DNA from: Patescibacteria group bacterium
Lineage (GTDB): Bacteria; Patescibacteriota; Patescibacteriia; JBAZBY01
DNA length: 64,000 nucleotides
Direction: 5' to 3'
Assembly (NCBI GenBank): GCA_041671225.1
Contig: JBAZBY010000001.1
Location: 30,338 to 94,337 of the forward strand
The notes below the pieces were generated by a model, which saw nothing but the letters and a program-made list of their open reading frames with translations, was not told the origin of the DNA and ran no database searches. Positions 10,384 through 54,395 of the stretch are shown piece by piece. The position numbers were made by a program, and so were the translations under genes. Within the stretch, counting starts at the first letter, position 1; every line of letters begins with the position of its first letter.

Positions 10384-10797
10384 CTATCGCTTCTTCCGCT
10401 TCCTCGCCACCCTGAGCCGCGCCATATGCTTCTGAAGGTCAAGCTGTGCCGCAATATAGCGCTCTTCTGATTCCACTTCCTTGCTCATCACTTCTTCTGC
10501 GCGCTTCCGTGCTTCTTCTGCTTTTGCTTCGTCAATCTCATCCGCATGCTCTGCGGCATCTGCCAGCACCGTGACACCTTGTTCAGACACCTCAATGAAC
10601 CCGCCGGCAACGGCATAGAGTTCTTCTTTACCGTTGCGGATAACGCGCATCTCGCCAGGCCGCAAAAGCGAAACTAGCGGAATGTGGTGCGGCAATATGG
10701 TGATCTCGCCCATTTCCGTAGGCAAAGAAACCTGCTCAATCTCTTCCGAGAGGAGCGTTCTTTCTGGCGTGGTGATGGTGAATTTGAATGTTTTCAT
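10384..10797 (-). CDS. atpC: F1 ATP synthase epsilon subunit
   Basis: 137 aa; ITILPHHIPLVSLLRPGEMRV is typical of epsilon. Last gene of the atp cluster. Confidence 0.9.
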   Translation of the reverse strand: MKTFKFTITTPERTLLSEEIEQVSLPTEMGEITILPHHIPLVSLLRPGEMRVIRNGKEELYAVAGGFIEVSEQGVTVLADAAEHADEIDEAKAEEARKRAEEVMSKEVESEERYIAAQLDLQKHMARLRVARKRKKR

Positions 10798-11225
10798 TCG
10801 TGCTTTTGTGATGTGAGGAAAATATTGGAACAGGCTGATCCCTCTGCTGCAGACTTCTCAATCTCTGATGTATCATCTGTCCATTTCAGTTCCGTGTACT
10901 GTGTCATTCCGAGAACATCCTGCGGAACAGTGGGTTGGCCTTCGATAATCTTTACTTCGTAATCCCGTAACGTGAGCTCATATTCCCCGCGATCCTTTGT
11001 CTCCTCACCGAGGAGCTTTAGAATCTCAACCTCCACGCCGAGCTTCTCTTTTGCAGCGCGTGCAACAGTGGCTTCCCACGGCTCATCCTCCGTCTTCTTG
11101 GTTGCTGCCGGGAATCCCCAGTAACCAGGGAAACGATCGTCATCCATTGGTCGCTTCACCAACAGAAACTGTGTCCGTTCCAGATTGTAAATGACAAGTG
11201 CCGCTGAATGCTTCTGCGGTTTCAT
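10794..11225 (-). CDS. Nudix-fold-like protein with degenerate Nudix box, embedded in the atp operon
   Basis: 143 aa. Box-like segment GFPAATKKTEDEPWEATVARAAKEKLG has REUxEE replaced by RAAKEK. There is a 4-nt ATGA overlap with the atpC start. Confidence 0.6.
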   Translation of the reverse strand: MKPQKHSAALVIYNLERTQFLLVKRPMDDDRFPGYWGFPAATKKTEDEPWEATVARAAKEKLGVEVEILKLLGEETKDRGEYELTLRDYEVKIIEGQPTVPQDVLGMTQYTELKWTDDTSEIEKSAAEGSACSNIFLTSQKHE

Positions 11226-11232
11226 TCGCCGT

Positions 11233-13525
<2,293 letters not shown>

Positions 13526-16992: not shown

Positions 16993-17262
16993 TTATTTTT
17001 TTTCTCCATCGCCCCTTTTATCTTTCTCTGAATCCTGATTCGATGTCACATCCTTCATCAACTTGAATGCCTTCCAAACAACAAGGATGGAGCTTACCAC
17101 CATGGAAACAACAATGCCGGTAATGAGGAGCCATGGATGCGTATCAAAACGATTGTCCAAAACTCTGCCGAGCAAGGCCAACGCCACTAATGGTACAGAA
17201 ATCGTGAACCCGAGTTGCATGGCCATCTGGAATGCCGAAAGCTGTTGTTCTCTTTCATTCAT
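16993..17262 (-). CDS. atpI: AtpZ/AtpI-family small membrane protein
   Basis: 89 aa with two TM helices, located directly upstream of atpB. Confidence 0.7.
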   Translation of the reverse strand: MNEREQQLSAFQMAMQLGFTISVPLVALALLGRVLDNRFDTHPWLLITGIVVSMVVSSILVVWKAFKLMKDVTSNQDSEKDKRGDGEKK

Positions 17263-17439
17263 ATGCGTCTGCCGTATCCCATGTATTCTATCAGAAAATA
17301 GCGTGTTCCATTTTTGGAGCGGCTACATACTAGGCTCTTTTAAGAAAAAAAGCAAGGGTGGTGGTTTTCAAAAGGGGTATCATGGATAATCAGACGAAAA
17401 ATGGGCTTTTTAGGCAATATTTTGTAGCAAACATATAAA

Positions 17440-18340
17440 CCTATGCATTTCCCAGTGGAAAACCAAGGTTTGCATATTTTTATTGCGAGAGGTAGGCTCC
17501 AAGCTAGTTCACGGCTCACTTCCCGCTTGTGGGGAAGGAAGGCCCCTGCGCACCTGGAAATGCGCTTGTATCGGCCAAAGGCTGGCGTTCTCTATGGAGG
17601 AATCCTCTATGAACGCTCTCAGCATCACCATGAAGAAGACGGAGGCCAACAAGGCGTGACCCGACAAGCAGGACTACCCGCATGGACGGGACTGTTAACC
17701 CCGTAATCCACGCACACCGCCCACTTCTCCTGCGAAGGTCGCAGGGAACGAAGGCACCGTGCGTCATATACGTACGGAAATCAACTGCGTCTGCGTGTGA
17801 CTGCAACCGCCGGCCACCCCGCGTGGAAGACGGGTCGTAGGACATACATACCATGGCGAGGCAGAACGTTCGTTAGACACCGCGGACAACCCTAGCCGGT
17901 CCGGGGGTTCCGTTGCGGGAATCCCTGTAAAGGCTCTTACGAGAGCTGACCGCGGCCACATGGCCAATGCCACATCCGTGGCAGGAGGGCGCATGGTCTT
18001 CTTCCTCGATCTGCTAGTGCCGGACCTCTCCGGCACATCGACGATCGCGGTGGAACCATCGTTTCACCGGAAATTCCCCTCTTACCGTCGGCGGACGTAA
18101 AGACGCAAACGTCGGCGGACGTACAAACACGCATGCTCCTAGTCCCATTTGGTGGGCACTCCACTGATGCATCACACGCTACCGGTATTCCCGGTCTATC
18201 CTCCGCGTGCTGACACGCATCCTGGAAACCCACAACAACGGGGCGCGCCGGTAAACGGCAGGCAAGGCTCCGCAGGAGAACCCACGATCTCATTCGATTG
18301 ACAGTAAGCGGCCTACGAGATCACTCCTGCGGAGCCGCTT
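17440..18340. other. GC-rich non-coding block with structured-RNA-like features (identity unresolved)
   Basis: No credible ORF on either strand; only Arg/Pro/Cys-rich wrong-frame ORFs. Contains a 13-bp perfect long-range stem (GGCTCCGCAGGAG / CTCCTGCGGAGCC), several local hairpins and a tandem near-palindromic repeat at 18088-18134. Confidence 0.4.
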
Positions 18341-18373
18341 TACTATTGGGCTTTTCTCTCTACAACCTTCTTC

Positions 18374-20203
18374 TCACTCCCACTCTATCGTGCCCGGCGG
18401 CTTGTCCGTAATATCGTAGAAAATCCCGGCAATGGGCAGTGACGCTGCCTCAATTGTCTGTACGAGCTCTTCTGCCATTTTCTGCGTGAGCTTGAATGGC
18501 GTGACCGTCATTGCCTCGCGTGACACCACAGGGCGAATCACCACACTCGGACGTAAGCCAAACCCAAAAGGAATAAGTACGACCGGCGTCTGCCAAATCT
18601 CTGCGGCAACGCCATTGGTGATAAAAAAATCTTGCACAATCGCATCCACGTTGCGCAACAAATCCAAACGCTCTTCACTCACATCCAATGATACCGGCTC
18701 GCCTTTTTCCAACACACCGCTCTGTGGATTCAATAAAACAACTACGCGATTGATTGCTTTGAAAGAGGTAAGGAGTTTGCGCGAGACAGCGCGTAATGGT
18801 TCCCAATCGATCATTGTGGAAATCGCAAGCGGATGCGCATACGTGCGCTGATCCCCTTGCACGCCCACGCTTTGCACGGGAAGGATCGCAAACTGTGCAT
18901 TCTCTGTAAAAAACGCGTCAATATCTTTTGCGGTAATACGCATGCGCTCCTCAAGATCGCGGAGTGGCTTTGCTTGTTGCGTGATAATGCGGATGGCAAG
19001 TCCCGGTCCTGGGAATGGTTGGCGGTGAATGAGCTCATCTGGAAGCCCAAGCCGTTCGCCGAGTTCACGCACTTCGTCTTTATACAAATCAACAACTGGC
19101 TCAATAAGCTCTTTGTTTGCGATCATCTCTTGCGCTTCTCCCACGCGATTGTGATGGGTCTTGATCACCTCAGCCTGCTGCGTGCCACCGGATTCTATGG
19201 TGTCCGGATAAATGGTGCCCTGTGCCAAAACCCACTCCGGCGCAACATAACCGCGTTCTGTACGGATACGCTCTGCAACATCCAAAAACATCTTGCCAAT
19301 GCGTTTTCTTTTCTCTTCCGGGTCATGAATACCGCGCACCGCGTCGACAAAATCTTTCTGCGCATCAATGATCTCAATATTGTCATAACCCATTTCCTTA
19401 AACTGCCCGGCGATCTCTTCCACTTCATTCAGCCGCATGAAGCCAGTATCAATAAACAGACCGCGGACGCGCTCTTTGCCGAGCACGCGGGTGAGAAAGG
19501 CAAATGCCACCGTGGAATCCACTCCACCAGAAACAAGAAGAAACACCTTGCGCTCACCCACTTCCGCCTTCACCTTTTCTGTCAGAATATGTTCGCGCTC
19601 TGCTGCGTTCCAGCTGGGTTGGGCTCCGCAAATACCAAACACAAAATTCTGCAGCATGTGCATACCGTGTTCCGTATGCGTCACTTCCGGGTGGAACTGC
19701 AGACCATAGATCTGCTCCGCAAAATTCTCCATGACGGCAACAGGGCATGTTGGGGTATGTGCAAGCACGCGGAATCCGTCTGGCACGCGTTCAACAGAAT
19801 CACCGTGACTCATCCAAACAATCTCCTCCGCATCTAAGCCCTCAAGCAACGGTGATGTTTTTCTGCTGTCTAGTGAAAGCGCAAGTGCGGCCTCGCCATA
19901 TTCCCGTTCCTTACTTTGATGAAGCTTGCCGCCAAAATGCTGCGCAAGGAGCTGATGACCAAAACACAGTCCAAGTATCGGGATAGCGAGCGTATATATC
20001 TTTTCATCAGGGCGAAGGTTGCTCTCCGCGACGCTTTGCGGACCACCAGAAAGAATGATCCCTTTTGCGGTTTTGAGATCCGTTGCGGAAACGTCATGCG
20101 GAAGGATTTCTGAATACACCCCAAGCTCTCGCACGCGGCGTGCAATGAGATGTGTATATTGTGAGCCAAAATCCAGAATGGCAATCCAATCGCGTTGTTG
20201 CAT
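18374..20203 (-). CDS. guaA: GMP synthase (glutamine-hydrolysing)
   Basis: N-terminal GATase (ILDFGSQYTHLIARRVRE, LGLCFGHQ) followed by ATP-pyrophosphatase (LLVSGGVDSTV) and a dimerisation domain. The ORF track extends the start to a GTG at 20290 that overlaps guaB; the ATG about 29 codons in (MQQRDW) is the conserved start. Confidence 0.93.
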   Translation of the reverse strand: MQQRDWIAILDFGSQYTHLIARRVRELGVYSEILPHDVSATDLKTAKGIILSGGPQSVAESNLRPDEKIYTLAIPILGLCFGHQLLAQHFGGKLHQSKEREYGEAALALSLDSRKTSPLLEGLDAEEIVWMSHGDSVERVPDGFRVLAHTPTCPVAVMENFAEQIYGLQFHPEVTHTEHGMHMLQNFVFGICGAQPSWNAAEREHILTEKVKAEVGERKVFLLVSGGVDSTVAFAFLTRVLGKERVRGLFIDTGFMRLNEVEEIAGQFKEMGYDNIEIIDAQKDFVDAVRGIHDPEEKRKRIGKMFLDVAERIRTERGYVAPEWVLAQGTIYPDTIESGGTQQAEVIKTHHNRVGEAQEMIANKELIEPVVDLYKDEVRELGERLGLPDELIHRQPFPGPGLAIRIITQQAKPLRDLEERMRITAKDIDAFFTENAQFAILPVQSVGVQGDQRTYAHPLAISTMIDWEPLRAVSRKLLTSFKAINRVVVLLNPQSGVLEKGEPVSLDVSEERLDLLRNVDAIVQDFFITNGVAAEIWQTPVVLIPFGFGLRPSVVIRPVVSREAMTVTPFKLTQKMAEELVQTIEAASLPIAGIFYDITDKPPGTIEWE

Positions 20204-20246
20204 GAATGTAGTATAGCAGGCTCTTGCACCTGCGTTCCAGTTTGCT

Positions 20247-21725
20247 ATGCTACCTTTTACTATGAAGCAACCAATGAACGAGGCTCTCACCTATGATGAC
20301 GTCCTCGTGGTGCCTGCATACTCGGAAGTCCGCCCGAAGCAGGTGGACACGAGCACGCGCCTCACTCGCAATATTATTCTGCAGGTTCCTCTTCTTTCCG
20401 CACCCATGGACACGGTGACGGAACATCGCCTTGCCATTGCCATCGCATTACACGGCGGTTTTGGATTTATCCATAAGAACATGTCTCCGGAAGCACAGGC
20501 AGAAGAAGTGCGCTTGGTGAAGCGGTATGAAAACGGCTTCATTGAAGACCCCGTGACAGTGCAACCAGAAGACAAGATTAGTGACGTAAATGAGATTCGC
20601 GAAACAAAGGGTTATAAGAAAGTACCGGTGGTGGATGCAAACGGCGTGCTTGTTGGACTTGTTACCGAGCAGGATTACTTTTTGCCGGATGATCTGGATG
20701 TACCCGTGAAGTTCAAAATGAAGCCGGTGGACGAGATCACCATTGAACACCACGGCATTGACCTCAAACAGGCAAACAGGATCATCCGTGAAAAAAAGCT
20801 TTCGGTACTCCCGATTGTTGATGGGCAAGGTCGGCTCATGGCGTTGGTGACGCGCAAAGACTTAGAGAAGAATGAGCTCTTCCCGCTTGCGACAAAAGAC
20901 GAACATAAATCACTGCGCGTCGGCGGGGCGATCTCCGTTGGTGAAGCAGCAGTTGAACGGGCAATGCTCCTTGCGGAAGCAGGGGTGGACGCATTGGTTG
21001 TGGATGTTGCACATGGCCATTCAAAAGGCGTGCTCCAGACGATTCACGTGCTTAAAAAAGAACTCCCGAACGTGGATGTGATCGGCGGCAACATTGCAAC
21101 CGTCGAAGGTGCCAAAGCTCTTATTCAGGCAGGAGCGGACGCGGTGAAGGTAGGCGTAGGTCCAGGTTCCATCTGCACGACGCGCATTGTGGCAGGCATC
21201 GGCATGCCACAGCTCACCGCAGTTATGGAAGCGGTGAAAGGCCGCAGCAAGAAGGACGTGCCGATCATCGCAGACGGCGGCATTCGCTATTCCGGAGATA
21301 TTGTGAAGGCATTGGTTGCCGGTGCAGAAACCGTTATGCTTGGCGGCTTATTTGCAGGAACCGATGAGGCTCCCGGCGATGTGGCACATGAGGACGGCAA
21401 AATGTTCAAAAGCTACCGCGGCATGGGTTCTGCAGAAGCCATGAAGGCTGGCAGCAAAGATCGCTACGGTCAAGGTGACGTGGAAGACGAAAACGATTTT
21501 ATCCCAGAAGGCGTCCCTGCTCGCGTACCATACCGCGGCCCCGTAGAGCGGCAAATGCATCAGTTGGTTGGCGGTCTCCGCGCTGGCATGGCATACATTG
21601 GCGCCGAGACAATTCCTGAGCTTGCTGTGAAGGGTGAATTCGTCCGCATCACGAGTGCGGGTATTACGGAAAGCCACCCACACTCACTCGGGGGGTTCAC
21701 CGCAACGTCAAACTACAAGGGCTAA
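20247..21725 (+). CDS. guaB: IMP dehydrogenase
   Basis: TIM-barrel IMPDH with a CBS pair insert; catalytic loop [13 protein letters not shown]. Confidence 0.95.
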
Positions 21726-44294: not shown

Positions 44295-44691
44295 GGGGAT
44301 GTTCAAAAGTCGCAAGTTCATTACAAGACGTTAGCGCGAATCGGAGGTGCTTTATACTCCGTAACCCATAAAGCAAACAGAAGTGCAAACTTCATTACAA
44401 AGGTGAAGAATACTGTCGCGAATGCTTTCAGCGTTCCACAGCTCTCACCTATTGCTGTCGCCTAAACGCGATAGCCATCCGCTTCAGGATTCCTGATACT
44501 GAAATCCGGGTGCCATTCATCAGGATCGGTAGTCGGTTGTCTCGACTGAGTACCTAAAATTCCGAGACGATGTGAGAAGGGGCTTTTGGTTGTTTCTTAC
44601 CTTTCTCACTTACTTTTAAAACAGCCTACATTCGTAGATGCAGACGTCCGAAATGAGTTTCACGCGGGTGAAAGACCCGCCATCTCCACCA
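44295..44691 (+). ncRNA. ssrA: transfer-messenger RNA (tmRNA, ssrA)
   Basis: Immediately downstream of smpB in a 400-nt stretch with no ORF of 60 aa or more. The 5' GGGGAUG (44295-44301) pairs with the 3' CAUCUCC (44681-44687) to give a 7-bp acceptor stem with a G3.U wobble. Discriminator A plus encoded CCA at 44688-44691. T-arm GCGGG-UGAAAGA-CCCGC. In-frame tag candidates begin with Ala-Asn at 44373 or 44418 and share a TAA at 44463-44465 (for example ANAFSVPQLSPIAVA). Confidence 0.75.
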
Positions 44692-52071: not shown

Positions 52072-52674
52072 CTAGCGAACCGGTGCCCGACGACGCTTTG
52101 CCGCCAGGATCCGCTGGTGGAAGGTTTCCCTTCCGCGCGTGTGACGCTCGTGGAATACCACAAGACGCTCACGGCGAACCGGAGGAGCGGAAAAGAATGA
52201 GCGAGCGGATCGAATGATTTTCATCTTGATCGAGAAGGGCACGTTCTTGCCGTGCTCCTTTGCGACCAAAACAAATTTCTCTCTTGCCGCCTTCATCTCT
52301 TCCTTGCTAATGGTGCGACCGAGTTCAGCCTCGGGAATCTCCTCGCGAACGAGGATTTCCGCCATCTTCTCGGGCATGCGGCCTATTGTCTGTTCGAGGA
52401 GGAGCTCGAGTGTTTTGCCCTCAGAAAAGAATCTACTGGACTTGACCAGTACGAAATGGAGAATGTTCTCCAATCCAACTCCTCCGAGGAGCATTTCCGT
52501 CTCAAACTCTCGTCTATCCTGGTTGGCCCTGATGGCCAGCGTGCGATACGCACCAGGCGCAAAGCCCCGGAGGAGCCCCAACAGGAACTCACTCACGGGC
52601 CTCGCAATCATTCCTGCGACCGCAGGAATACCGGCATCGAAACGCCGGAGAAACTGCGATGAAGACAACGGCAT
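52072..52674 (-). CDS. hypothetical soluble protein (GC-rich island gene B)
   Basis: 200 aa, charged, Arg-rich C-terminus, no recognisable motif. First gene after the candidate promoter. Confidence 0.5.
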   Translation of the reverse strand: MPLSSSQFLRRFDAGIPAVAGMIARPVSEFLLGLLRGFAPGAYRTLAIRANQDRREFETEMLLGGVGLENILHFVLVKSSRFFSEGKTLELLLEQTIGRMPEKMAEILVREEIPEAELGRTISKEEMKAAREKFVLVAKEHGKNVPFSIKMKIIRSARSFFSAPPVRRERLVVFHERHTRGRETFHQRILAAKRRRAPVR

Positions 52675-52919: not shown

Positions 52920-54395
52920 TCAACGGGAGCGGGTGGAAGAAGAGTCCTCCTGTGCGTGAAGCCAGCCCTCCTGCTGACCCAGCTTCTCCCACGCCTTCCG
53001 AAGGTCGGATGGCGCGGAATCCGCCGAAACTGCCTGGCCTCTGCCAGCCTCCATGTCCATCCGGGCAGTGCCGGGTCCGCGCTGCACGCGGAGCGTGACA
53101 TGATGTCCAGTGGACTTCATGAAACCCTCACGGCGCCCGAGCTCCTCCCAGGCCTTCCGGAGATCCGTGGTCATCCCCCCCTTGCGGAAGGGATTCTCGG
53201 TTTCCTCACGTTCCCTCGTAAGACGCGCGATGTCTTCAGCGGGATCATAAGCCCCGCCGCCGACCACGCGCGCCGCGATCCATACCGATTCATCGTGGAT
53301 CGCATCCTGCTTTTCCTGCGGCATCTCCGAATGGAAAACGCCGAGCAGGTGGTTCACCGGATGCGCGAGCAGAACTGCGAGCAGAGCGCACGCAGTGGCG
53401 ACGGTTGACCAGCGCACGTAGCGCCGGCGCCAGAACGTGCTGGCCAGCCAGTACGTGAGGCCCACGACGACAGAACGCCAGAACGAACGCGGCAGGGGTG
53501 GATCCTCGCCTTCAGGGAGCGGACGCTCTACGGGTTCGCCGGAACCGGCGAGCCACGCGGCGCGTACGTCACCCCAAAAGGACTCCACCGGACGCGGCAT
53601 GGGCTGCGGATCGAGGTCACCGAGTCCGCCAGCCAACCACTCGCGGTGGATGTGTCCGGGATAGCCCTTGAGAGAAATGATGATGTCACGTTCCCTCTCG
53701 GTCTTCGCCAGCCGGATGGTTTGGAACGGCGGTTCGCCAAAGCGATCTGTCGTTCCTTCGTGGCGATCCTCCGTCTCCGCGTTCGCGTCGACGATCTCCA
53801 CCACGATCCCCTCGAGCGGCTCATTGGTCTCACTGTTGGAGACCTGAATGATCGGGACAAACCTGCGCTGTCCCTGCTCAAAGGACACCCAGAGCTTAGG
53901 GATGATGGCCTGGCGAGGCCCGATCACTCCCTTGATGTTAAGGTCCGGATCGCTCTCCAGGCTGATCATCACGGGGATGTTCATGGCCTCGGAGACCGGA
54001 ACGCTCACCGAGAACATCGCCTTTCCTTCGACATCAAGGACGCTCGTGTTCCCGTACGGGAACGTCACGCCCGGATCGCGAAGGTCCATCTGCGCCGTAC
54101 CACGCATAGGCTCGTCGCCCAGCATGAACGTGGCGCAGATGTCGACGAGAACCACGCCGGGGCGGTTCTCGCTTTCCGTCCTCCGCAGCACCTCAAAGTG
54201 GATGCTGGGACGGCTGGTGCGGGGGGGTGCGGGTTGGGGAGCGCGCGGAGGCGGGGTATCGCGACGATCGTCGCGAGGCTCCGCTCTCCTCGGTTGGTCG
54301 CGGCGCGGGCCACGACCTCCTCTGCGTCCTCCCTCACGGGCGGGCGCTTCTCCTCCTGCTGCGCCGGGCGTACCGGCGGGGCTGTCTTCGGGCAT
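52920..54395 (-). CDS. hypothetical protein with Arg/Pro-rich disordered N-terminus, two TM helices and C-terminal tandem DLRKAWE(E/K)LG repeats (GC-rich island gene A)
   Basis: 491 aa; AAAGGAG Shine-Dalgarno upstream; about 70% GC; long antisense ORFs 53646..54542 and 53848..54711 are artefacts of the high GC content. Confidence 0.6.
   Translation of the reverse strand: MPEDSPAGTPGAAGGEAPAREGGRRGGRGPRRDQPRRAEPRDDRRDTPPPRAPQPAPPRTSRPSIHFEVLRRTESENRPGVVLVDICATFMLGDEPMRGTAQMDLRDPGVTFPYGNTSVLDVEGKAMFSVSVPVSEAMNIPVMISLESDPDLNIKGVIGPRQAIIPKLWVSFEQGQRRFVPIIQVSNSETNEPLEGIVVEIVDANAETEDRHEGTTDRFGEPPFQTIRLAKTERERDIIISLKGYPGHIHREWLAGGLGDLDPQPMPRPVESFWGDVRAAWLAGSGEPVERPLPEGEDPPLPRSFWRSVVVGLTYWLASTFWRRRYVRWSTVATACALLAVLLAHPVNHLLGVFHSEMPQEKQDAIHDESVWIAARVVGGGAYDPAEDIARLTREREETENPFRKGGMTTDLRKAWEELGRREGFMKSTGHHVTLRVQRGPGTARMDMEAGRGQAVSADSAPSDLRKAWEKLGQQEGWLHAQEDSSSTRSR

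Follow-up and report, generated by a model that had tools for sequence, protein, structure and literature searches.

The DNA analyzed here, a 64-kb stretch of contig JBAZBY010000001.1 from a Patescibacteria group bacterium (the window), contains a non-coding gap of 1111 nucleotides (nt), at 17263-18373, between guaA and the ATP synthase (atp) operon. We propose, with moderate confidence, that the gap is an independent plus-strand gene for a long, highly structured RNA, either non-coding or dual-function, of an undescribed family. Sequence signals make it quite likely that the functional RNA is read from the plus strand, opposite guaA and the atp genes. The proposal draws on conservation above that of the adjacent essential genes, on exceptional folding with compensatory changes in predicted helices, on promoter-like, Shine-Dalgarno and terminator-like signals, and on the absence of any match to a known family.

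Composition and context of the gap

An earlier note on this stretch had described a 1.1-kb non-coding, GC-rich block between the atp operon and guaA, and its coordinates and composition were correct: the GC content, which averages 51% over the window, is 39-48% at 17300-17500 and 57-63% across 17500-18400. The AT-rich left end, which the note had assigned to the atp promoter, does carry a promoter that is conserved in all four genomes compared. The note also called the spacer anomalous in a genome with gaps of 1-50 nt. It is a clear outlier, and no other non-coding gap in the window comes near it in size, although on a rough map of open reading frames (ORFs) other gaps reach ∼390 nt, the runner-up being the transfer-messenger RNA (tmRNA) gene. 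The gap sequence is single-copy within the window. Two further contigs (L002 and L003) belong to the same genome, hereafter genome A, and their gap sequence is 100% identical.

Conservation relative to the flanking genes

The comparative evidence comes entirely from four genomes. Searches with the guaA and ATP synthase subunit a proteins traced the guaA-gap-atp arrangement to exactly three other metagenome lineages: relative B (guaA 85% identical; contigs L005 and L007, from one sample and with a 17-nt overlap), relative C (62% identical; contigs L006 and L008, with a 30-nt overlap) and relative D (68% identical; contig L004). No close relative of guaA was found among GTDB representative genomes, and more distant relatives (L009-L013) have neither the arrangement nor any sequence in common with the gap.

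At four-fold degenerate sites of guaA and atpB, genomes A and B are 47-55% identical and A and C ∼41% identical, which is near saturation, and the flanking coding DNA of A and B is 60-90% identical per 100 nt. In the gap, identity between A and B per 100 nt is 94% at 17400-17499 (within a conserved block that starts at ∼17398), 90% at 17500-17599 and 96% at 18200-18299. BLAST aligned 17309-17665 at 89.8% identity and 18106-18358 at 92.2%. The segment holding the small reading frame ORF2 is 77% identical, and 17666-17982 cannot be aligned between the two genomes because of a deletion in B, which lies within a single contig. The conserved blocks carry 1- and 2-nt insertions or deletions (indels) between A and B, and a 44-codon plus-strand ORF at 18167-18301, considered as a coding candidate, is frameshifted in B by a 1-nt insertion and was rejected; the constraint therefore acts on nucleotides and not on a protein. 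Because fast-evolving stretches separate the conserved blocks, purifying selection is a better explanation of the pattern than a recent transfer of the entire segment.

Folding and compensatory changes

The region 17500-18345 folds far more stably than expected for its composition, with z scores of −5.7 (plus strand) and −4.9 (minus strand) and none of 20 shuffled sequences as stable, while equal-length pieces of guaA and guaB mRNA gave z scores of +0.51 and −0.34. For an alignment of A, B and C that begins with ORF2 and covers the rest of the gap, RNAalifold predicted 80 pairs, in which 92% of cells are paired, compared with 34-46% when the partners are slid. Ten pairs are changed on both sides, against 3.6 ± 1.5 in shuffled alignments, and 0 of 500 shuffles reached 10; this is the comparison of homologous spacers for covariation that the earlier note had proposed, and such counts, coming from three or four sequences, are suggestive and not proof.

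The best-supported helices are those at 18017-18036 and 18047-18070 and the two stems of the terminator-like hairpin H3 (18266-18336; Table 1). In the hairpin at 18017-18036 (GTGCCGGA-CCTC-TCCGGCAC), GGA/UCC is replaced by UCC/GGA in C. H3 has 19 pairs with 97-100% of cells paired; a U-A pair becomes C-G and an A-U pair becomes G-C in C, and one pair is G-U in B. In H1, the helix ACCGG/CCGGU becomes GCCGG/CCGGC in B, and its architecture is kept with a different sequence in C, where GUGGG/CCCAC is replaced by GUGGC/GCCAC. The loops AACCCAC, UGACAGUAAGCGGCC and CUAUCCUCC are invariant. Overall, the predicted structure consists mostly of serial local hairpins.

The local hairpins that the earlier note had named are all present in the sequence (17531-17546, 17548-17565 and 18017-18036), the one at 17548-17565 being identical in B and thus offering no covariation test. 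Its 13-bp long-range stem is a perfect inverted repeat (18266-18278/18324-18336) and forms the lower stem of H3, a conserved terminator-like hairpin, which the note had not recognized as such; it had also missed the signals on the strand opposite the flanking genes and the small ORFs preceded by Shine-Dalgarno sequences. Compensated helices and conservation above the neutral rate, by which structured non-coding RNAs are generally recognized, are both found here. Together with the exceptional folding and the 1- to 2-nt indels, they support the first of the two explanations offered in the note, a large structured non-coding RNA.

Candidate promoters, predicted 5′ end and terminator-like hairpin

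Assignment to the plus strand is based on promoter elements, the spacing between one of them and a 5′ hairpin, the U-tract that follows H3, the Shine-Dalgarno-preceded ORFs, and U-G to C-G switches in the Y stem, the ORF2 hairpins and H3. The atp operon promoter, ∼60 nt upstream of the atpZ start (17262), is the sole gap segment conserved in all four genomes (TTGATT-17-TAGTAT in D). Two candidate plus-strand promoters lie beyond it. The first, P1′, diverges from the atp promoter and is a weak match in A, and the equivalent position holds TTGACA-17-TATAAT in C (12 of 12 consensus positions) and TTGACA-17-TATATT in D (11 of 12). P1′, as kept in A and B, is a weak remnant of the strong promoter that drives a further small gene, ORF1c, in C and D. 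The second, P2, is identical in B, reads TTGCGT-17-TAGGCT in C, and has diverged to TTGCAT-17-TAAGTC in D. In all four genomes, 8-11 nt separate the P2 element (TTGCRT-17-TAGGCT in A, B and C) from the Y hairpin downstream, so Y would be a 5′-terminal stem-loop, with transcription from P2 predicted to start near 17505. The candidate plus-strand promoters of A and B are weak matches that score below the threshold of a consensus scan and are nevertheless conserved, and the promoters of C and D are strong; no minus-strand promoter was found inside the gap in A, B, C or D.

Genome A has two copies of the Y motif (CACYGCYCACUUC..GGGAASGAAGGC), B and C have one each, and D has a diverged Y-like form. 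The motif is confined to these loci and is found nowhere else in the window. Its inner stem, UUCCC/GGGAA, is preserved, in contrast to a variable apical part, and one outer pair changes from U-G to C-G. The first copy in A contains the hairpin GGGGAAGGAAGGCCCC at 17531-17546.

ORF1c is an extra small unannotated gene of C (L008 321-555) and D (L004 12232-12433), on the strand equivalent to the plus strand of the window, that encodes 38 and 41 amino acids (aa), respectively (...LEKIIQQIERAIEDLDHALGK and ...LIEQINRAFKELEKAIRPQKKG). It has a near-perfect sigma-70 promoter in both genomes and a clean canonical terminator in C, and it is gone from A and B. Searches of Pfam and NCBIfam gave no match, and the public records do not call it as a gene.

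At the other end of the gap, the H3 element ends 11 nt from the guaA stop codon, and H3 abuts that stop codon in all four genomes. It is followed on the plus strand by UUUUUU in C, UUUUU in D and UUUACUAUU in A and B, and by no U-tract on the minus strand in any genome; guaA therefore has no intrinsic terminator of its own. The size of H3, its invariant 7-nt internal loop and its conserved 25-nt apical loop suggest a role beyond termination.

TABLE 1 Coordinates of the gap features and bordering genes in the window
Feature	Position	Strand	Description
atpZ	16993-17262	minus	PF09527; first gene of the ATP synthase operon
atp operon promoter	17327-17355	minus	−35 TTGCTT (17355-17350), 17-nt spacer, −10 TAGTAT (17332-17327)
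Candidate promoter P1′	17410-17439	plus	TTAGGC-18-TATAAA; divergent from atp promoter
Candidate promoter P2	17470-17498	plus	TTGCAT-17-TAGGCT
Y hairpin, copy 1	17510-17546	plus	CACGGCUCA-CUUCCC-loop-GGGAAG-GAAGGCC; putative 5′-terminal stem-loop
Local hairpin	17548-17565	plus	GCGCA-CCUGGAAA-UGCGC
Shine-Dalgarno hairpin and mini-ORF1a	17586-17659	plus	Pairs GGAGG (17596-17600) and AUG; ORF1a at 17609-17659, 16 codons, MNALSITMKKTEANKA
Mini-ORFx	17656-17706	plus	16 codons, MTRQAGLPAWTGLLTP; GTG start overlaps ORF1a stop as GTGA; ends in hairpin X
Hairpin X	17686-17704	plus	ACGGG-ACUGUUAAC-CCCGU; loop CUGUUAA
Second, degenerate module copy	17714-17842	plus	Y copy 2 (17714-17758) through GCGUGGAAGACGGGUCG (17821-17837)
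Genome A-specific hairpin run	17843-17983	plus	CCGCGG pair, GGCUCU/AGAGCU, GGCC/GGCC, GCCAC/GUGGC; minimum free energy (MFE) structure
ORF2	17993-18100	plus	35 aa, MVFFLDLLVPDLSGTSTIAVEPSFHRKFPSYRRRT; Shine-Dalgarno GGAGGG at 17984-17989; hairpins 18017-18036 and 18047-18070
Two CGTCGGCGGACGTA copies	18086-18123	plus	At 18086 and 18110; each can form mini-hairpin ACGUC-GGCG-GACGU
H1	18142-18244	plus	Long irregular hairpin, ∼27 bp, six stacked helices
H2	18247-18259	plus	GCCG-GUAAA-CGGC; GCC-UAUAC-GGC in C
H3	18266-18362	plus	Terminator-like; 13-bp lower stem, internal loop AACCCAC, 6-bp upper stem, apical loop UGACAGUAAGCGGCC, then GCUUUACUAUUGGGCUUUUCUCUC
guaA	Stop codon 18374-18376; true start ATG 20203	minus	609 aa

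Small reading frames and the variable middle

Three small ORFs lie on the plus strand, and Shine-Dalgarno-preceded ORFs hold their position across genomes on that strand only. Between A and B, the 51 nt of ORF1a differ by one substitution and by none that is synonymous, a pattern that indicates constraint at the nucleotide level. Tiny Shine-Dalgarno-preceded ORFs of 17 aa (C) and 8 aa (D) with unrelated peptides occupy the same position. ORFx has a counterpart in C (MISRRHDHPTGWKGSGLLTP) with the same GTGA overlap, the same ..GLLTP end and a 4-codon in-frame length difference; the region matches C at 85% over 34 nt, and ORFx is lost in B.

Hairpin X, in which ORFx ends, carries in its loop what we take to be the 7-nt anticodon-loop sequence of tRNA-Asn(GUU). 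No tRNA is predicted there, and a tRNA or tRNA-like element was rejected: ARAGORN and Rfam gave no cloverleaf, and the resemblance is limited to this isolated anticodon-arm look-alike. The order of hairpin X relative to the Y motif differs between A and C, owing to the module duplication in A.

That duplication, at 17714-17842, is a partial tandem copy of the module running from Y to ORFx; it resembles the single module of C and is absent in B. The hairpin run that follows it has no counterpart in B, C or D. Since B has neither the module copy nor the private hairpins, the middle of the RNA appears to be dispensable.

In A, B and C, ORF2 remains open and has a conserved Shine-Dalgarno sequence, conserved start and stop codons and a 3-nt indel; in D it is reduced to 9 codons. 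Synonymous changes account for 9 of the 20 changed codons between A and B and for 3 of 17 between A and C. The mean BLOSUM62 score of the ORF2 frame is 2.75, compared with 2.3-2.7 in the other five frames (P ∼0.05 by column shuffling), so the substitution pattern is weakly coding-like. The A, B and C peptides share a charge pattern, the N-terminal half carrying −3 and the C-terminal half +5. Both internal hairpins of ORF2 show compensatory changes, and the variable parts of the peptide coincide with the RNA hairpins that these changes preserve. The hairpin around the ORF2 Shine-Dalgarno sequence keeps two invariant G-U pairs, and most of the Shine-Dalgarno sequences in the gap are paired in predicted hairpins. 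A long-range pairing of ORF1a (GAAGAAGAC) with the start of ORF2 (GUCUUCUUC) was seen in A and was rejected, as it is not conserved in B.

The tandem repeat of the earlier note corresponds to the two copies of the 14-mer CGTCGGCGGACGTA, which are real, but Tandem Repeats Finder reported no repeat array in the gap. The first copy encodes the RRRT-stop end of ORF2. The motif has 3 matches against 0.34 expected by chance, and it also occurs twice in C, where the assembly breaks.

These features bear on an alternative, that the locus is chiefly an mRNA for small proteins (ORF2 and perhaps the coupled ORF1a and ORFx), the rest being untranslated regions (UTRs) that control translation and stability. 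The spacing of GGAGG-type Shine-Dalgarno sequences 4-9 nt before start codons, the open frame and constant charge of ORF2, the synonymous changes between A and B, the whole-codon length differences of ORF1a, ORFx and their counterparts in C, and the recurrence of hairpins that sequester Shine-Dalgarno sequences are all as such an mRNA would have them. The ORFs, however, span just ∼210 of ∼850 nt, and it is outside ORF2, in blocks with frameshifting indels, that conservation is highest. The ORF2 score barely exceeds those of other frames, synonymous changes are few between A and C, and where the peptide varies it is the RNA hairpins that are kept. In addition, no synonymous change separates the ORF1a copies of A and B, the mini-ORF peptides of A, C and D are unrelated, and ORF2 shrinks in D. 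Neither 1.84 billion representative proteins (two spurious, repeat-inflated matches aside) nor Pfam or NCBIfam yielded a homologue of ORF2, and nothing significant was found for the other small ORFs in Pfam and NCBIfam. We consider a locus devoted mainly to small proteins unlikely; translation of the small ORFs is possible but, as the substitution patterns suggest, is not the main constraint on the locus.

Choice of strand

A number of observations weigh against the proposed plus-strand RNA gene. Most of the first conserved block has no recognizable counterpart in C or D, implying a constraint that is young or shifting. The four genomes include two that were stitched from pairs of short contigs, and the covariation statistics are low-powered and inflated by relatedness. 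The promoter matches in A are weak and fall below the threshold of a consensus scan, and the U-tract after H3 is interrupted in A. The MFE is lower on the minus strand (−378 versus −348 kcal/mol on the plus strand), the structure conservation index (0.61 versus 0.65) does not pick a strand, and the best-supported helices hold 4 G-U cells, which fit the plus strand, versus 3 A-C cells, which fit the minus strand. Folding energy, structure conservation index and G-U versus A-C counts were therefore set aside as means of choosing the strand, none being decisive.

A functional RNA on the minus strand would be a guaA 3′ UTR, a read-through segment or a 3′-UTR-derived small RNA upstream of the atp promoter. 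Because guaA lacks its own intrinsic terminator, its transcripts probably enter the gap, and a minus-strand RNA would have the lower folding energy, more G-U pairs, a z score that is also strongly negative and a nearly equal structure conservation index; several one-sided helix changes that read A-C on the plus strand are G-U on the minus strand. Nevertheless, no conserved promoter, Shine-Dalgarno-preceded ORF or terminator signal was found on the minus strand inside the gap, whereas terminator, promoters and ORFs point to the plus strand in four of four genomes, and the atp operon has its own conserved promoter beside atpZ. On the minus strand, moreover, mismatches would replace the two invariant G-U pairs in the hairpin of the ORF2 Shine-Dalgarno sequence and the U-G pair in the Y stem. 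We judge a minus-strand function to be quite unlikely.

The arrangement of small ORFs also recalls type I toxin-antitoxin mRNAs, such as par/Fst RNA I-RNA II and hok/mok/sok, and ORF2 could on that model be a small toxic peptide on a silent structured mRNA, held in check by an overlapping convergent transcript. Like those systems, the locus has a small ORF (here of 35 codons) with a sequestered Shine-Dalgarno sequence, leader ORFs that are coupled through overlapping stop and start codons, a direct repeat at the end of the ORF and a terminator hairpin that convergent transcripts would share, in this case with guaA; its peptide sequence also evolves fast. Unlike theirs, the ORF2 peptide is neither hydrophobic nor membrane-like: its best 19-residue Kyte-Doolittle mean is 1.46 in A, 0.86 in B and 0.44 in C, and its N-terminal half is negatively charged. 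No antisense RNA gene or dedicated antisense promoter was found in the gap in the four genomes, although guaA read-through might supply antisense RNA, and the locus is a single chromosomal copy that keeps its syntenic place between housekeeping genes. A toxin-antitoxin function would also leave a 250-nt 3′ domain, 92-96% conserved, unexplained, and we regard it as improbable.

Searches against known families

Covariance models of Rfam release 15 were run, as the earlier note had proposed, on the whole window at the gathering score, on 17000-18600 (1.6 kb) at E ≤ 10 and on the loci of B, C and D at E ≤ 1. The window yielded only tmRNA and tRNA-Asp. No family was matched in the gap of A at E ≤ 10 (two noise matches of 16 bits each were returned for 17000-18600) or in the orthologous loci at E ≤ 1; the families without a match include RNase P, 6S, SRP, OLE, GOLLD, ROOL, HEARO, raiA, riboswitches and group I and II introns. 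ARAGORN found no tRNA or tmRNA in the gap or in the B, C and D loci, nor did the Rfam model find a tRNA in the gap. Six-frame translations of the gap gave no Pfam match at E ≤ 0.1 and a single chance match of 12.8 bits at E ≤ 1, and the gap ORFs of 87-118 aa had none. BLAST with the gap found no similarity in 50,697 phage records, apart from a 32-nt chance match, and no match in 72,556 plasmid records. Viral contigs scanned with patterns for the ORF2 C terminus and H3 gave 0 matches; the same scan of metagenome contigs also gave 0 matches, but it did not recover the window’s own sequence, which fits both patterns. In the literature, no report was found of a structured RNA at the guaA-atp locus or in this clade.

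Public annotation places hypothetical proteins across the gap: one of 109 aa in the window (17516-17854, minus strand) and one of 214 aa in D (L004 11847-12491). Both are Arg/Pro-rich, belong to no family and are not conserved between relatives, the 214-aa frame being Arg/Pro/Ser-rich and without similarity to A, B or C; they are probably annotation artifacts. The small Shine-Dalgarno-preceded ORFs, by contrast, are never annotated in the public gene calls of the copies examined.

The second explanation of the earlier note, a decayed gene acquired horizontally (or the remains of a mobile element), fares poorly. The GC content is above the genome mean and relatives differ in content, A having a partial duplication and B a deletion, as remnants might show. 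The translated searches of Pfam and the phage, plasmid and viral-contig comparisons nevertheless found no source, there is no second copy in the window and no frame is conserved across the blocks. Decaying sequence would not exceed flanking essential genes in conservation, nor would it be expected to keep its synteny across four lineages in which guaA protein identity is as low as 62%. We consider this origin very improbable.

A very divergent member of a known family (RNase P RNA, 6S RNA, OLE, GOLLD or ROOL) would fit the size and GC-richness and is scarcely credible, as the Rfam run that matched nothing in the gap did find the tmRNA and tRNA of the window. The earlier note could not match RNase P by eye, and the covariance models (RF00010, RF00011 and RF00373) exclude it, with no match at E ≤ 10 in A. 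Bacterial RNase P RNA has a P1-P4 core in which the P4 helix is formed by CR-I and CR-V. Two possible, faint look-alikes of its conserved regions, GGAAGGAAGGCC toward the 5′ end and GACAGUAAGCGGCC toward the 3′ end, would speak for a relationship; the CR-V-like GACAG motif, however, lies in the loop of the terminator hairpin and not in a P4-type long-range helix.

Proposed RNA gene and its possible role

As proposed, the plus-strand RNA would run from ∼17447 or ∼17505 to ∼18350, a length of ∼0.85 kb in A and less in B and C. One or two promoter-like elements, arranged divergently to the atp promoter, would initiate the transcript, which would pass from the 5′ Y hairpin through a variable middle, partly duplicated in A, to a conserved 3′ domain of three hairpins, and terminate at the conserved hairpin and U-tract that abut the guaA stop codon. 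Selection would act mainly on the sequence and fold of the RNA, which would carry along tiny ORFs of 16, 16 and 35 codons. The product could be non-coding, with a regulatory or structural role, or it could have a dual function and encode a small peptide under tight translational control.

The gene and guaA would be convergent, and guaA lacks its own terminator; the 3′ domain would therefore be antisense to guaA read-through transcripts, which offers a plausible route to regulation of guaA or insulation of the atp operon. The RNA gene would also separate guaA transcription from the atp operon. More specifically, and only tentatively, we suggest a new class of large (∼0.6- to 0.9-kb) structured RNAs, restricted to one clade of Patescibacteria (Candidate Phyla Radiation [CPR]) with streamlined ∼1-Mb genomes and more conserved than the neighboring guaA and ATP synthase genes, that would act through its fold, as a scaffold or antisense regulator at the guaA/atp junction, and not through a protein.

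Observations on neighboring genes

The window guaA protein is identical to an NCBI record titled “MAG: ... Patescibacteria group bacterium.” At 609 aa, it is ∼90 residues longer than a typical GuaA (∼520 aa), and its best homologues in Patescibacteria are all ∼600 aa long. The mechanically called ORF (18374-20290, minus strand) begins 29 codons early, at a GTG. A TATACT box lies 6 nt before the true ATG, which suggests that the guaA mRNA is leaderless or has a very short leader. In B, an insertion of 88 nt directly after the guaA stop codon (L005 2020-2110) holds a short run of 7-nt repeats (TCGTAGA, TCGTAGT, CTGTAGT and TCGTAGG).

Within the ATP synthase operon, a NUDIX hydrolase gene (10794-11225, minus strand) lies between atpD (11233-12603) and atpC (10384-10797). 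In D, the beta gene is directly followed by the epsilon gene (L004 17508-19383), and the NUDIX gene is therefore a lineage-specific insertion.

The tmRNA gene (44295-44691, plus strand) was found by Rfam at 78 bits. ARAGORN, which should report tmRNA as well as tRNA, reported tRNA-Asp only. The most GC-rich part of the window (65-71%) holds an orphan 491-aa ORF (52920-54395, minus strand) with an Arg/Pro/Gly-rich N terminus and no Pfam match; an adjacent 200-aa ORF (52072-52674) likewise has no Pfam match.

Significance and comparison with known systems

Genomes of Patescibacteria are among the smallest and most tightly packed in bacteria, and to our knowledge almost nothing is known of their regulatory RNAs. 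A 1.1-kb non-coding island that is kept in so small a genome, with conservation above that of adjacent essential genes, is, in an uncultivated phylum, a concrete candidate for a new RNA, structured or dual-function, its value being limited by a distribution of four genomes. It also marks an unusual junction, at which transcription for purine nucleotide synthesis (guaA) and for ATP synthase would meet that of a convergent RNA gene. Translation of the small ORFs, should it occur, would add unannotated microproteins that public gene calls have missed in every copy examined.

H3 resembles the intrinsic (Rho-independent) terminators found between convergent genes in being GC-rich, in its plus-strand U-tract and in its position beside the guaA stop codon. 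It differs from them in its unusually large stem of 19 bp and in its conserved loops.

Searches for structured RNAs make use of long GC-rich intergenic regions as a signature (PMC6429828, PMC8632094, PMC11109978), and large bacterial structured RNAs include OLE, GOLLD, ROOL and raiA (PMC6429828, PMC8632094, PMC12286853). The gap shares with these four a long GC-rich intergenic region in a compact genome, a length of hundreds of nucleotides, strong structure and a narrow distribution. It differs in matching no Rfam model, in having serial local hairpins instead of multistem junctions or pseudoknots, in a middle that is dispensable and partly duplicated, in the presence of small ORFs and in being known from four genomes.

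Other RNAs combine a regulatory function with a small encoded peptide, e.g., RNAIII of Staphylococcus aureus (hld), SR1 of Bacillus subtilis (SR1P) and SgrS of Escherichia coli (SgrT). The gap RNA has no sequence or Rfam relationship to any of them, is longer than each at ∼0.85 kb, and is known solely in one small clade of Patescibacteria, with a peptide that is predicted only. Like them, however, it would come from a separate gene equipped with a promoter and an intrinsic terminator of its own (both candidates here), fold into a chain of many hairpins and carry a small Shine-Dalgarno-preceded ORF, with the non-coding parts of the RNA better conserved than the ORF itself.

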